64,000 bases of DNA from a virus. The notes beneath the pieces are model-generated. The model worked only from the letters and a program-made list of their open reading frames with translations. It was not told the DNA's origin and did not search any database. A program made the translations under genes and the position numbers. This document shows positions 1,439 through 23,134 of this stretch, one piece after another; position 1 is the first letter of the stretch, and each line of letters opens with the position of its first letter. The stretch lies in IMG/VR virus record IMGVR_UViG_3300042337_000526, positions 1 to 64,000 of that record. One strand, 5' to 3'.

Positions 1439-1633
1439 ATGGAACAAGATGAAATAGGTCGCATGGATATTTGTAGACATTTGCTTCCTCCTCCTGGTGA
1501 TGAAGTTGTTGGACAATTAATTGCAGAGATTCGTAGACTAAAAGAACGAGAAGTGTTATGGGAACAATGTGCTGATAAAACAATGCTAGTATATGGCGGT
1601 TGTTATCGACCAACTGATTTGGAGAATAAGTAA
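1439..1633 (+). CDS. hypothetical protein
   Basis: ORF track; GGAGA SD; part of + gene train. Confidence 0.7.
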   Translation: MEQDEIGRMDICRHLLPPPGDEVVGQLIAEIRRLKEREVLWEQCADKTMLVYGGCYRPTDLENK

Positions 1634-1795
1634 TTATGGATTGGACTATAATACATAAAGTAGTAATAGTCTATTTTAGCACTGCTATTTTTATATGTTC
1701 TCTTTTAGTTTGGAGCGATCCTTTGATTAATATGCTATCTGTTGGATTTTTGTTAGGATTTGTATGGAACGAAACTTTTTTTGCAGGGAAAAGAA

Positions 1796-2011
1796 ATGAT
1801 GATTGAACGAGAGCCTATGGCATGGGCCGTTATGCAACCAGATTCTTATTCTGTTTTTGTATCATATCATCAAGCAGTTGCTCATCGAAATAACTGTTCT
1901 GATGGACATATTATTCCATTGTGGGCGAATCCTAAAGACAACCCTGTGATTTTAAGACCCACTAAAGAACAGAAAGAAAATTTTATGAAAGTCTTTGAGG
2001 AAAAGAAATGA
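1796..2011 (+). CDS. hypothetical protein
   Basis: ATG 1796 in frame with track ORF 1760..2011. Confidence 0.6.
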   Translation: MMIEREPMAWAVMQPDSYSVFVSYHQAVAHRNNCSDGHIIPLWANPKDNPVILRPTKEQKENFMKVFEEKK

Positions 2012-2224
2012 AACTAACTAAAGAGGATATTATAGTATACTCACTATTGATTTTGGGATTTTTGTTTTTTGTAGTAATTGTGCCAATAGGTTTGAGTAGT
2101 ATGATTTGTGAATATTTGGAGAATAACTAATGATAACTATACCTCGTTGGGAATATTATCTTCTTTATTTTATTGCATTTATGCAATGTCTAAAATTTAT
2201 AGATAGGATAGTTGAGTATAACAA

Positions 2225-2425
2225 ATGAATCGTCTACAACAAGCCACCAAAACTTGGATAGAATCTGTGCAGAAATATTATGAGAATACTCCTCGTAATG
2301 AATTGACCCAAATTTATATGAGGGGCTATTTTAGTGGGTGGAGCGAGAGAGAGATTCTAGGATTGGCCGAAAAACTACTAAAGAATGAACAAGACTATCC
2401 TTTGTATAGAGAGAATGAAGAATGA
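2225..2425 (+). CDS. hypothetical protein
   Basis: ORF track; stop overlaps next start. Confidence 0.65.
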   Translation: MNRLQQATKTWIESVQKYYENTPRNELTQIYMRGYFSGWSEREILGLAEKLLKNEQDYPLYRENEE

Positions 2426-2631
2426 ACGATAAACTCAGAAAAAATGTTCAAGAGTTCTTGCTTGACTATGAAGAAAGACTTTTTATGTTAGGACTTCTTA
2501 ATGGTGGTAATATAGAACATACTCTTGCTGATGATTTGAAAACAACTAATTCCTTATTGGAAACTGCTGTTAATCTTTTGCAGAAGTGTGTGGTTGATGA
2601 TTATAAGATAGTTCCTCAAGATGGAGAATAA
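2422..2631 (+). CDS. hypothetical protein
   Basis: ORF track; ATGA overlap. Confidence 0.7.
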   Translation: MNDKLRKNVQEFLLDYEERLFMLGLLNGGNIEHTLADDLKTTNSLLETAVNLLQKCVVDDYKIVPQDGE

Positions 2632-2634
2632 CTA

Positions 2635-2823
2635 ATGAGTATTGTTACTAAAGATTGTTATAAGGCCGATGTTTTTAACTTTAATGTTGAGCATAATGGG
2701 AGCCTTATTGATCTTACTATTAATAATGTTATCTCTTGGGAGTGGATGAAAATGAAGTTGACTAAAGAGGAAGCCAAGGGGTTAGCCGATTTTCTTTATG
2801 GTACTATTGGGGAAAATAAATGA
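2635..2823 (+). CDS. hypothetical protein
   Basis: ORF track; GGAGA SD. Confidence 0.7.
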   Translation: MSIVTKDCYKADVFNFNVEHNGSLIDLTINNVISWEWMKMKLTKEEAKGLADFLYGTIGENK

Positions 2824-3020
2824 ATGGAGTAAATATCAAAAAAGAACTAGAGACTCTGGATCGTAATGATTTTGATCGAACAAATATTCTCGTTACCCAA
2901 ATTATGGAAGATATTAAAGAAACTATGGGGAATGATTATGAAATGGGAATGGGTTTAATTGAGGATTATTTGTTTGATCTAATTAATCCTGAGTTTTTAG
3001 ATTTTGGAGAAAAGAAATGA
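2820..3020 (+). CDS. hypothetical protein
   Basis: ORF track; ATGA overlap. Confidence 0.7.
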   Translation: MNGVNIKKELETLDRNDFDRTNILVTQIMEDIKETMGNDYEMGMGLIEDYLFDLINPEFLDFGEKK

Positions 3021-3226
3021 AAGTCTATGCTGTAATTTGTGAATATGGTGCTGCTAGTATTCGTGAGAGTATAGAGATAGTTTGTAAAACTCGTGAGATT
3101 GCAGAGTCATATTATTTAAATGAGGACTTTATTGGGCGTCCAATTCGTATTGATGAAATGATTGTGTGGGATAAAAAGTGGGAACCTCCTAAGCCAAAAA
3201 AGAAAAAGGTTAAAGGCCGCTCTTGA
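3017..3226 (+). CDS. hypothetical protein
   Basis: ORF track; ATGA overlap, GGAGA SD. Confidence 0.7.
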   Translation: MKVYAVICEYGAASIRESIEIVCKTREIAESYYLNEDFIGRPIRIDEMIVWDKKWEPPKPKKKKVKGRS

Positions 3227-3281: not shown

Positions 3282-3512
3282 ATGAATCTTATTACATGTT
3301 TTAGTAATGTTATTGGTCACAAAGAGGCTCAAGAATTAGTGGTCGATTTGAACCAAATGAAATCAAATTTGTCTGAAGATTTTTATATTAAGTATGATGA
3401 ATACCAAGATTATTCTAAGGATGATAATTATATGGTAATTGGAAATGTTACGCAAGAAGATTGGGATGAACTAAATCTGGATATGGACTTTATGGAAACT
3501 GATATTACCTAA
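3282..3512 (+). CDS. hypothetical protein (acidic)
   Basis: ORF track; downstream of promoter. Confidence 0.7.
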   Translation: MNLITCFSNVIGHKEAQELVVDLNQMKSNLSEDFYIKYDEYQDYSKDDNYMVIGNVTQEDWDELNLDMDFMETDIT

Positions 3513-20938: not shown

Positions 20939-21014
20939 GGGGCGGAAGGTAAGCCGGTTGCATCCGACACTCTTATAAGGTGTTCATAGGTTGGTTCGAC
21001 TCCAACTCGCCCTA
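20939..21014 (+). tRNA. tRNA-Ile(UAU)
   Basis: cloverleaf: acceptor GGGGCGG/TCGCCCT+A73, anticodon stem ACACT-CTTATAA-GGTGT (TAT at 20974-20976), T-arm GTTGG-TTCGACT-CCAAC; CCA not encoded. Confidence 0.9.
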
Positions 21015-21098
21015 TTTTTATTTTATAACTTGCTATAAAGAATAAATTATCTATTATTTGAATAGAGTAAAATTCATTATAACAAGCAAGGAAATTTT

Positions 21099-21356
21099 AT
21101 GACTCATCGTTCATTATGCTGTATGCCAATAGTAACTCTTTTATTTGGTCTATTAGTTTTATCGGTTGGTTTCAATTTTATATTCGTTGAAAAAATCAAT
21201 CAACTACATCATATCGTTAATAGTACAACTTCGCCAGTAGATGATGACGAACTGAAGAAATTGATGGAAGAAGTTAAAAGGCTATCAAAGCAAACATATA
21301 CTTCAGGCACTAAATACGATATTAAAACTAGAGAACCGATACAAAATGATTTCTGA
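21099..21356 (+). CDS. membrane-anchored hypothetical protein
   Basis: N-terminal TM-like segment. Confidence 0.7.
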   Translation: MTHRSLCCMPIVTLLFGLLVLSVGFNFIFVEKINQLHHIVNSTTSPVDDDELKKLMEEVKRLSKQTYTSGTKYDIKTREPIQNDF

Positions 21357-21558
21357 AATTATATACGATAGAGAATGGACATTAAAATATTCTCTATTTA
21401 ATAGAAAATGTTATTTTAGTGGACAATCTTTAAGGTTTCAACCATGTTATGTTGGAAGAAAAAAGATTCGTTCATTATTGTCAAAAAGGTATCAGAATGA
21501 TGATATTTGGATAAGTAAAGAACACTATCTGGATATGATTAAGAATGGAATGGTGTAA
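21346..21558 (+). CDS. hypothetical protein
   Basis: ORF track. Confidence 0.6.
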   Translation: MISEIIYDREWTLKYSLFNRKCYFSGQSLRFQPCYVGRKKIRSLLSKRYQNDDIWISKEHYLDMIKNGMV

Positions 21559-21618
21559 CTTATGATAACCTTCCTTCATATTAGTTAAGTAACTAACCCG
21601 CCTAAAAGAAAGATTATC

Positions 21619-21795
21619 ATGAAATACAGACTTCTGTTTATATGTCTATTATCAGTTTTATTTGCTTCTTTAACAATGAATGTTATTCATTCAGAATCTT
21701 TGGAGGCTGTTAAAGAAGTTAATAAGATCAATGATATGATACATACAAAAATGGTCAGTAATCTACACGATAGATTGATTGAACTGGAAAACTAA
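21619..21795 (+). CDS. small secreted or membrane protein (58 aa)
   Basis: hand-translated MKYRLLFICLLSVLFASLT...; stop abuts tmRNA 5' end. Confidence 0.6.
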   Translation: MKYRLLFICLLSVLFASLTMNVIHSESLEAVKEVNKINDMIHTKMVSNLHDRLIELEN

Positions 21796-22147
21796 GGGGG
21801 CGAAAGGTATCGACAGGTAAATAGAGATATGGATGGCATCGACTGGTTGAATAACAGGCCAGTATAAAAGTTATTCAAAAAATGTTAATTGGCGAAGTAA
21901 ATCTCGCTCTCGCTGCCTAATTAATTAGGTACGAGTGGGGCTATATGGGCCTTATTACCCAATCATATTGACTCAGATAATTCTGATAAGGAAGTCTAAC
22001 CCGAAAACATAGGCAATGATCGTAATCGATCTGATGAAGATAATTCTTCTAGGTTTGTCTAATGTCCAAATTACAATAGACTAACGATGTAGATGTTTAT
22101 ATTGAAATTACTCTGGACGCGATTTTCAAAGATCGCCGCCTCCACCA
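21796..22147 (+). ncRNA. ssrA: tmRNA, tag (A)GEVNLALAA
   Basis: 5' GGGGGCG...ATCGAC pairs with 3' CGCCTCC-A-CCA (G3.U70); PK1 ACTGG/CCAGT + TGAATAAC/GTTATTCA; tag ORF 21891-21920 ending LALAA-TAA. Confidence 0.93.
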
Positions 22148-22158
22148 TATTTTTATCG

Positions 22159-22195
22159 CCTCCATTGCTATTTTTGGTGTATATAGTAATGGAGG
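22159..22195 (+). promoter_or_regulatory. RBS-occluding hairpin with TTTTGGTGTA motif in the loop
   Basis: CCTCCATTGCTAT pairs with ATAGTAATGGAGG (13 bp, one G.U), masking the GGAGG SD of the 22203 ORF. Confidence 0.75.
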
Positions 22196-22202
22196 TAATG
22201 CT

Positions 22203-22772
22203 ATGAAAACAATAAGTTTAATGTGCCATACTTGTGGAAAAACTATTTCCAAACCCAAAAATGAAATAAATAGACAGTTAAAAAATGGGAGAACAGAATT
22301 TTATTGTAATTTAAGTTGTTCTGGAAAAAATAAAAATAATATTGAACATTTAAAAAACTTCAAAGACAATTTCAAAAATATAAGATATATAAAACAGACA
22401 GATGAATATTCTAATTTTAGATGGTACATGAAAGTTATAAGAAAAAGTTCTAAAAGAAAAAATCAAAAACATAATGTCAATTGTCAATATCTTAAAGATT
22501 TATGGGAAAAGCAAAATGGTATATGTCCATTTACACATAAAAAATTAGATTTAAGGACACATTCAAAAGATAGTCTTAAAAATCCATATTCTGCATCTAT
22601 AGATAGAATTGATAATACTAAAGGATATATAGAGGGAAATATTAGATTTGTCGCTTTAATATACAATTACGCAAGAAATACTTTCTCAGATGATGAGGTA
22701 ATGGATTTTTGTAAAAACGTGTGGAACAGACTTGACAATGGCTTCAATGCCAACGCCTCCACTTTATTATGA
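22203..22772 (+). CDS. His-Me finger (HNH-like) homing-type endonuclease
   Basis: N-terminal CHTC...FYC..SC Zn motif; CPFT...SIDRIDNTKGYIEGNIRFV..IYN. Confidence 0.75.
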   Translation: MKTISLMCHTCGKTISKPKNEINRQLKNGRTEFYCNLSCSGKNKNNIEHLKNFKDNFKNIRYIKQTDEYSNFRWYMKVIRKSSKRKNQKHNVNCQYLKDLWEKQNGICPFTHKKLDLRTHSKDSLKNPYSASIDRIDNTKGYIEGNIRFVALIYNYARNTFSDDEVMDFCKNVWNRLDNGFNANASTLL

Positions 22773-23134
22773 TTAGAAAAATTTGTTCATACTGTGGCAA
22801 AAGGAAAAACTGTAAAAGTTTCCCCAAGCATAGTATGTATAAAGATAATCTGGATAGTAGATGTAGAAGTTGTGTTAAGAAACAAACTAAAGTTCGTGGA
22901 AAACTTCACAAAAAAGCCCCTCCTCGCCCAGAGGTATGTGAGTGCTGTAAAAAAGCCCCATTAAAATGGTGCTTGGATCACGATCATTCTGATGATTCTT
23001 TTAGAGGATGGCTCTGTGATAGGTGTAATACTGGCATAGGTAAACTTGATGACAATTTAAACGGTGTAATTAAGGCTGTAAACTATTTAATTATGGCAAA
23101 AAATAGGAAACAGCAAAATGATAACAATCCATAG
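22769..23134 (+). CDS. endonuclease VII-like protein
   Basis: CECC...LDHDH...FRGWLCDRCNTGIG EndoVII motif; N-terminal CxxC pairs. Confidence 0.8.
   Translation: MIRKICSYCGKRKNCKSFPKHSMYKDNLDSRCRSCVKKQTKVRGKLHKKAPPRPEVCECCKKAPLKWCLDHDHSDDSFRGWLCDRCNTGIGKLDDNLNGVIKAVNYLIMAKNRKQQNDNNP

Follow-up and report, generated by a model that had tools for sequence, protein, structure and literature searches.

A probable homing-endonuclease cassette at the T-arm of a phage tmRNA gene, with a replacement 3' end and a displaced original

The locus described here lies in a 64,000-nt stretch of viral DNA (positions 1 to 64,000 of IMG/VR record IMGVR_UViG_3300042337_000526), referred to in the following as the window. 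The surrounding genome, which encodes rIIA, a ligase and a clamp loader, belongs to a large T4-like phage. On the plus strand, a tmRNA gene at 21796-22147 matches Rfam family RF00023 over the full model (model positions 1-374) with 84.5 bits, compared to a gathering score of 47. This bears out the first-pass annotation of an intact tmRNA that ends at 22147 and features an 8-nt T-loop; relative to the RF00023 model, this loop is an insert. The acceptor stem is tRNA-Ala-like, with G3 facing U across the paired 5' and 3' strands (G3:U70), and the tag ends in ...LAA. ARAGORN calls no tmRNA in the window or in one related locus, L008, though Rfam finds the full window gene; the miss is a limit of the detector with 8-nt T-loops, not an absence of the gene. 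In an endonuclease-free allele of the locus (L012), whose tag region is identical to that of the window, ARAGORN does call the tmRNA, with the tag GEVNLALAA*. Past the tmRNA follow a hairpin, an endonuclease-like ORF, a second tmRNA 3' end that is read as the tail of this ORF, and a resident gene of the EndoVII family. The coordinates of these features, together with homologues of the ORF from other genomes, are collected in Table 1.

Table 1. Features of the tmRNA locus in the window, and homologues of its endonuclease-like ORF at other loci (coordinates of homologues refer to their own loci).
Feature	Coordinates	Strand	Basis or relation
Hybrid tmRNA, resident body plus imported 3' end	21796-22147	+	Rfam 84.5 bits; tag frame GEVNLALAA*
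Resident-type tmRNA body, 5' acceptor strand to GGAC before the T-arm	21796-22118	+	Near-identical to L012, L015, L003
33-nt block, identical in resident lineage and donor-like L008; would hold the left homologous crossover	22086-22118	+	Alignment
Cassette (insert), 620 nt	22119-22738	+	blastn breakpoints 22118/22739
Imported T-arm (5-bp stem, 8-nt loop), acceptor 3' strand, discriminator A, encoded CCA	22119-22147	+	L008/L018 type
Hairpin, 14-bp stem, arms 22158-22171 and 22183-22196	22158-22196	+	-20.4 kcal/mol, z -4.36
Endonuclease-like ORF, 189 aa; residues 1-180 native, 181-189 acquired	22203-22772	+	phrog_3322 E 4e-21; stop overlaps ATG at 22769
Displaced resident 3' end: most of T-stem 5' strand, 6-nt loop, T-stem 3' strand, acceptor 3' strand, AC	22739-22762	+	Identity to six relatives
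Tail FNANASTLL, from displaced tmRNA end and trailer (old T-loop, T-stem, acceptor strand)	22743-22769	+	Tail in no homologue
Resident EndoVII-family gene	22769-23134	+	Pfam PF02945 E 1.2e-10; phrog_2633 1e-20
Calothrix sp. HK-06 chromosome, 321 aa, two nuclease domains	L039:3001-3966		42% identity to window ORF; 54 nt past chromosomal tmRNA
L043 homologue			39% identity to window ORF; after a tmRNA
L044 homologue			48% identity to window ORF; after a tmRNA
L041 homologue			37% identity to window ORF; adjoins tmRNA 3' end, convergent
Region of L045 homologue and tmRNA	1501-2556		34% identity to window ORF; upstream of standard tmRNA, stop inside tmRNA 5' acceptor strand
L031 homologue			42% identity to window ORF; between acceptor piece (CCA end) and coding piece of permuted two-piece tmRNA
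L042 homologue			29% identity to window ORF; away from tmRNA, after ribonucleotide reductase
L046 homologue			35% identity, partial match; away from tmRNA, after nucleoside deoxyribosyltransferase-like gene, beside rIIB

Scanning IMG/VR with the tmRNA 5' end and the neighbouring DUF6734 gene yielded 21 related loci, and the insert is missing from eight of them (L001, L002, L003, L011, L012, L013, L015, L021). These eight relatives are 90-94% identical to the window over 21000-22118, where the blastn alignment stops; it resumes at 22739, but at 22758 in L001 and L002, which bear another T-arm. Since the alignments break at 22118 and resume at 22739, the sequence from 22119 to 22738 constitutes a 620-nt insertion. 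The first-pass annotation had predicted that in relatives without the ORF the tmRNA would be joined directly to the EndoVII-like gene, and this is the arrangement found in six contigs (L003, L011, L012, L013, L015, L021): the tmRNA body is followed by one T, the sequence corresponding to window 22739-22762, six bases and the start of the EndoVII-family gene, which in these endonuclease-free relatives begins 6 nt past the tmRNA end. Relatives lacking the ORF do not carry both 3' ends, the outcome that the first-pass annotation had named as refuting; they have one each, the one displaced in the window. The alignments thereby uphold the proposed entry of an endonuclease cassette at the 5' edge of the tmRNA's T-arm, where it provided a new 3' end and displaced the old one. 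With RF00023, endonuclease-free alleles of the resident type score 84-85 bits, level with the 84.5 bits of the hybrid tmRNA.

The endonuclease-free arrangement is also found in RNA. Lake metatranscriptome contigs that are 95-99% like the window and lack the endonuclease contain the 22118-T-22739 join at depths of 273 and 65, which shows that the end displaced in the window serves as an RNA end in the relatives. The imported 3' end and the ORF were absent from the contigs of four RNA runs, a result that concerns contigs and is silent on the end used by an ORF-bearing phage. Two metatranscriptome contigs show further details: in X15, the trailer at 22764 is joined via AA back to 21794, which may stem from a molecule in circular or tandem form or from an artefact of assembly, and X17 stops at 22762, directly ahead of an Illumina adapter. 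At the DNA level, an exact 1.2-kb stretch is present in 14 lake and freshwater metagenome runs from 2016 to 2024, some of which are possibly the source sample. Among the INPHARED phages, no close relative of the locus was found.

The first-pass annotation had also described a diverged second tmRNA 3' end that is translated as the tail of the endonuclease, and several observations confirm its presence within the ORF at 22203-22772. The 9-mer that closes the acceptor strand of the tmRNA, CGCCTCCAC, occurs at just two sites in the 64 kb, 22137 and 22754, with an expected count of 0.04 and two matches in 0 of 100 shuffles, and the likeness of both 3' ends extends downstream of the 9-mer, over 20 nt at 80%. 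In addition, positions 22739-22762 match the functional tmRNA 3' end of the six relatives with the direct join at every base. Chance similarity of the two 3' ends was considered and is ruled out by the shuffles and by this exact identity to the relatives' functional end. Judged by the identity, the displaced 3' end is the original, formerly functional tmRNA end of the window's lineage. It retains just a 4-bp stem. Its first four bases, TGGC (22739-22742), are common to the end of the ORF and the resident T-stem and form a microhomology at the junction.

The extent of the acquired tail needed correction. It had been given as DNGFNANAST at 22734-22762; FNANASTLL (22743-22769) is indeed derived from the tmRNA, whereas the codons GAC-AAT-GGC (22734-22742), encoding D-N-G, are native to the endonuclease ORF, because homologues end in ...RLDNGKQQ* and ...RLDNSN*. 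The old T-stem has in common with 22734-22742 only TGGC, and the tmRNA-derived tail is therefore FNANASTLL. More generally, homologous ORFs end in ...RLDNGKQQ*, ...RLDNSN* or ...RLDNGN*, within a promoter-like end of the cassette. L016, L023 and L007 show this native end, which breaks off in the window after ...AATGGC, at the Gly codon. Position 22765 is T in the window and A in all relatives; the T destroys an in-frame TAA, so that the stop of the ORF now overlaps the ATG of the next gene.

What did the insertion bring with it? Its content is a foreign T-arm, an acceptor 3' strand, CCA, a hairpin that hides the SD and 180 native codons of the ORF. The imported T-arm, acceptor strand, CCA and spacer show one or two mismatches to L008 and L018 (one from the T-arm to CCA) and are unlike the resident T-arm. 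In these two loci, the tmRNA body is very unlike that of the window outside the 33-nt block at 22086-22118. The flanks were thus co-converted: the donor-type T-arm, CCA and spacer arrived with the ORF, and the tmRNA body kept its resident type. The imported type of T-stem is found in six ORF-bearing loci and is 100% paired over four distinct alleles, with compensatory double changes in two of its five pairs, albeit in a small sample. We infer that the hybrid tmRNA stays functional via its imported 3' end. A different exchange is seen in L001 (5297-5649) and L002, both 93% identical to the window, in which both tmRNA acceptor strands and the T-arm have been replaced, with compensatory 5'/3' changes; from the pattern of these changes, the whole tRNA-like domain is swapped between close relatives.

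The layout of body, element-borne 3' end, element and displaced 3' end is also that of islands integrated at ssrA, and the two ends have a 9-nt identical core. The duplication could consequently be read as the attL/attR pair left at the 3' end of ssrA by an integrase-type element with that target. However, the sole ORF of the 620-nt insert is that at 22203-22772, which leaves no tyrosine or serine recombinase, the junctions lie 20-35 nt upstream of the common core and not in it, and sister cassettes insert without a duplication. With no recombinase and with the junctions outside the 9-nt core, this model was ruled out, and we grant it next to no probability. Group I introns were searched for as well: at the Rfam gathering threshold, no Intron_gpI match is present in the window. 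Elsewhere in two of the relatives, group I intron matches do occur (L003:12019-12215, 61 bits; L015:10915-11102, 52 bits).

The ORF itself matches PHROGs families named 'endonuclease', 'endonuclease VII' and 'HNH', with a best E of 4e-21, and has zero matches in Pfam and NCBIfam. No GIY-YIG domain was found for it in Pfam, PHROGs or NCBIfam; the fold is beta-beta-alpha instead. The AF2 model (pLDDT 89.8, 63 sequences) consists of an N-terminal four-Cys ribbon and a C-terminal PacI-like beta-beta-alpha domain, with strands at residues 130-135 and 147-151 and a helix at 152-158. PacI tops the VIA-align comparison (Z 8.3, rmsd 4.3, 109 aligned residues) and is followed by Cas9 HNH, Gme HNH, McrA, Cap5, GVE2 HNH and T4 EndoVII, with Z of 3.7-5.4 for Cas9 HNH, Gme HNH, McrA, Cap5 and EndoVII. 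The top Foldseek matches are all HNH and are again led by PacI (E 0.08), all at E 0.08 or more, with none at E 0.001 or better. Sequence searches of the PDB, with the single protein and with the profile, returned nothing significant, the best relevant match being PacI at a profile E of 0.36. Matches of the DRID block to HisF in the PDB search look spurious and were set aside.

In all 63 members of the family, three Cys of the N-terminal ribbon are invariant, as are C108, A131, S132, D134, R135, Y142, N146 and N155. The invariant Arg135, part of a D-R-I-D block, takes the place of the HNH catalytic His where the first strand ends, and not a single His is invariant in the 63 members. By the alignment and the AF2 model, Tyr142 is invariant and falls in the loop that connects the two strands. 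PacI-type proteins are a known active His-less group in which a loop Tyr takes over (PMC5714182). Given the His-less position, the placement of Y142 in the inter-strand loop and the PacI precedent, a PacI-like active site with Tyr142 is plausible by analogy. The label 'His-Me endonuclease' of the first-pass annotation hence holds for the HNH-type fold, as reflected in the Z of 8.3 to PacI, but the protein is without the canonical catalytic His and is PacI-like, not a standard His-Me/HNH enzyme. As modelled, the cassette ORF probably encodes a DNA-cutting enzyme.

Upstream of the ORF, the hairpin repeats the acceptor 3' strand in miniature in its 5' arm and has the SD, GGAGG (22191-22195), in the 3' arm. 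This design is shared: in all ORF-bearing loci, the SD is preceded by a copy of the acceptor 3' strand to which it is complementary. From its sequence, the hairpin that buries the SD probably keeps translation of the nuclease low or timed, and it resembles the translational control of T4 mobile nucleases. A scan for sigma-70 promoters and terminators returned 12 sites versus 9.5 in shuffles, which is no excess, and zero in the hairpin loop. A promoter-like sequence (-35, 17 nt, -10) makes up the spacer between the tmRNA and the next tRNA in the endonuclease-free loci L006, L010, L014, L019 and L020, and in L007, L016 and L023 the nuclease ORF has the same sequence at its 3' end. This spacer is either the scar of a cassette loss or a native promoter into which the ORF grew.

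In a search of 5.8 billion proteins, 98 homologues of the ORF were recovered, none with a Pfam domain or a name, and the exact 189-aa fused protein is encoded on 32 contigs; together with the 14 metagenome runs that contain the exact 1.2-kb stretch, this speaks for an allele that persists. An alignment-based scan of IMG/VR viral contigs retrieved 13 full-length homologues; 13/13 begin 40-70 nt past an Rfam tmRNA, and the genes downstream of the ORF vary by lineage among them. Altogether, a tmRNA gene end adjoins the ORF in 19 of the 21 loci examined, the two without an adjoining tmRNA being L042 and L046, which are also the two most distant members. The side and orientation of the ORF relative to the tmRNA vary, with downstream, upstream and convergent placements. 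The usual seat of the family is revealed by L023, which has the ORF, and L038, which does not: the two are 97% identical, and a 965-nt insert sits exactly past the tmRNA end in L023, with no duplication. As this insert lies directly past an unduplicated end, the normal position of family members is immediately beyond the tmRNA end. Measured against that pair, the window is a variant of the usual seat, in which an off-register right-hand join would have fallen inside the resident T-arm.

Several of these loci show features of their own. The 965-nt insert of L023 also contains a second small HNH-like ORF (L023:3012-3410), followed by a tRNA-Ser with the unusual anticodon ACT (3410-3496). The Calothrix homologue carries two tandem copies of the nuclease domain in one protein. 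The Rfam tmRNA match in L045 is unusually long, at 539 nt. In L031 (2385-3190), the acceptor piece of the two-piece tmRNA has its CCA end at 2447, the ORF occupies 2501-3028 and the coding piece, with a tag ending in ...YALAA*, starts at ~3014; the 5' acceptor strand of the coding piece supplies the last four codons of the ORF as well as the stop. Just past this two-piece tmRNA, at L031:3240-3282, lies a weak type III hammerhead-like match of 27.5 bits, below the gathering score of 48.5. An Endonuclease_7 gene also lies beside the tmRNA of L041, and in the window the EndoVII-family gene (22769-23134) sits 6 nt from the resident tmRNA end; genes from at least two nuclease families seem to accumulate in the flank 3' of the tmRNA.

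How should this association with tmRNA ends be understood? The insertion could have arisen by ordinary illegitimate or short-homology recombination between co-infecting phages, with the ORF as a passenger and possibly an inactive, His-less DNA-binding relic. The lack of an invariant His at the HNH position and the 4-nt microhomology at the right junction agree with this, and a pattern of one homologous and one microhomology junction would also be expected from nuclease-independent illegitimate recombination. Yet family members are found at tmRNA ends in 19/21 loci, in phages as well as in a cyanobacterium, with differing other neighbours; D134, R135, Y142, N146 and N155 are invariant over 63 diverged members; and the SD-hiding hairpin is conserved, which together make a mere passenger unlikely. 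A second alternative takes the protein to be a functional partner of the tmRNA, acting in its processing, protection or regulation, so that the two form a co-inherited module and the ORF is not selfish. The strict adjacency to tmRNA, which extends to a bacterial chromosome and to the space between the pieces of a two-piece tmRNA, and the pairing of the ORF's SD with a copy of the acceptor 3' strand would suit such a role. However, near-identical phages do without the ORF and their tmRNA is abundant in RNA libraries, the side and orientation of the ORF are variable, the fold is of the DNA nuclease type, and the end of the ORF is made of whatever flank it landed in. We thus regard a partnership with the tmRNA as very improbable.

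Our favoured interpretation, to which we assign a probability of roughly 0.8, is that 22119-22738 is a free-standing homing-endonuclease cassette of the family found at tmRNA ends, acquired by double-strand break repair with one homologous and one microhomology end. The enzyme would have acted during co-infection on a tmRNA allele without the endonuclease, cutting it at the T-arm or upstream of it. Next, the left end would have invaded the donor inside the 33-nt block and copied the donor T-arm, acceptor strand, CCA, hairpin and ORF; the left crossover lies within 22086-22118, with no longer foreign tract. The right end would have been without homology, because the downstream genes differ, and we propose that it was therefore joined at the TGGC microhomology, between the last codons of the ORF and the resident T-stem. 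Such a join would have removed the cassette's own stop codon and its promoter-like 3' end, so that the ORF became fused with the old tail of the tmRNA. A break-induced event would place the cut at the T-arm or 5' of it, given that to the right of the insert the old T-loop and acceptor strand are still present. The donor itself is not among the sequences covered; the best donor-like match is L008, which is 88% identical in protein but has a different ORF end.

One part of the original proposal does not find support, namely that the imported 3' end with its 8-nt T-loop resists cleavage. L023 and L038 have an identical, canonical T-arm, so immunity or resistance need not reside in the T-arm. Besides L023, five further ORF-bearing loci (L028, L029, L030, L032, L033) have canonical 7-nt T-loops. 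By these comparisons, cleavage resistance via the 8-nt loop is not a supported rule. Moreover, the displaced copy is intact from TGGC on, and if the site of the enzyme lies wholly inside it, the genome would still be a target.

The probable homing cassette in the window provides a natural before/after case of a nuclease cassette in a structured-RNA gene, with no intron or integrase, in which a spare 3' end would keep the gene alive. For annotation, an unannotated family of about 100 members with no Pfam domain is of use, as its position predicts a tmRNA gene end and ARAGORN misses alleles with an 8-nt loop. The family is also a candidate source of rare-cutting, His-less HNH enzymes that would recognise the conserved tRNA-like end of ssrA, and the loci examined here point to the tRNA-like domain of phage tmRNAs being swapped between lineages. 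Going further, the family could be a dedicated parasite or remodeller of phage and bacterial tmRNA termini, with the window and L031 as stages on a route to the permuted two-piece tmRNA. We put this forward as a speculative idea with the odds clearly against it, which nonetheless connects the family, in a way open to test, with how permuted tmRNA genes arose: if true, nuclease-driven end duplications would be a route to circularly permuted two-piece tmRNA genes. In the searchable literature, we found no description of a family of free-standing, PacI-like nucleases associated with the ends of tmRNA genes.

Finally, we would like to compare the cassette with known systems. At the level of the enzyme, the reference is the PacI restriction endonuclease, a member of His-Me finger group 20 (PDB 3ldy/3m7k) with a Tyr in its omega-loop (PMC5714182). 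The window protein likewise features zinc-binding Cys motifs around a beta-beta-alpha core and no catalytic His, the equivalence of Tyr142 being drawn by analogy. In contrast, PacI serves restriction and recognises a palindromic 8-bp site, and the sequence match between it and the family is not significant (profile E 0.36). In genetic terms, the closest setting is that of T4 SegB, a free-standing GIY-YIG homing endonuclease within a tRNA gene cluster, whose 27-bp site includes the T-psi-C stem-loop motif (PMC2330249). SegB is inherited together with flanking RNA-gene markers and is missing from related phages, and its cleavage and homing were shown experimentally (PMC2330249). Both cases concern a free-standing nuclease gene beside a structured-RNA gene in a T4-like phage; they differ in that the window enzyme is PacI-like beta-beta-alpha and SegB is GIY-YIG, in the tmRNA here versus the tRNA targets of SegB, and in that we infer homing here. 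Splitting of the target gene or a replacement gene end, as seen for the window cassette, has also not been reported for SegB.

Other mobile elements are known to aim at the tRNA-like 3' part of tmRNA. Group I introns reside in the T-psi-C loop of tmRNA genes, a few of them with LAGLIDADG homing endonuclease genes (PMC11915505), and as with the cassette, gene function is kept; here, however, it would be kept by a duplicate 3' end and not by splicing. PMC11915505 further mentions genomic islands and prophages that integrate at the ssrA 3' end. These elements also bring a replacement 3' end and leave a displaced fragment, but they rely on tyrosine integrases and a common att core and are kilobases long, whereas the cassette comprises 620 nt with one ORF of nuclease fold and no recombinase. 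The architecture of the window locus is matched in fungal mitochondria, where mORFs have been described that carry foreign gene C-termini, affecting atp6 in Allomyces macrogynus and atp6, atp9, cox2 and nad3 in Glomus (PMC3630166). The order of elements is the same in both: a gene core, an imported divergent 3' end, an endonuclease ORF and the displaced native 3' end, which is the one closest to that of the relatives. Even the stop-less ORF in phase with the adjoining sequence has its counterpart among the mORFs. They act on protein-coding genes of mitochondria and encode LAGLIDADG or GIY-YIG enzymes, whereas the window presents the arrangement in a structured-RNA gene, in a phage and with an enzyme of another family.
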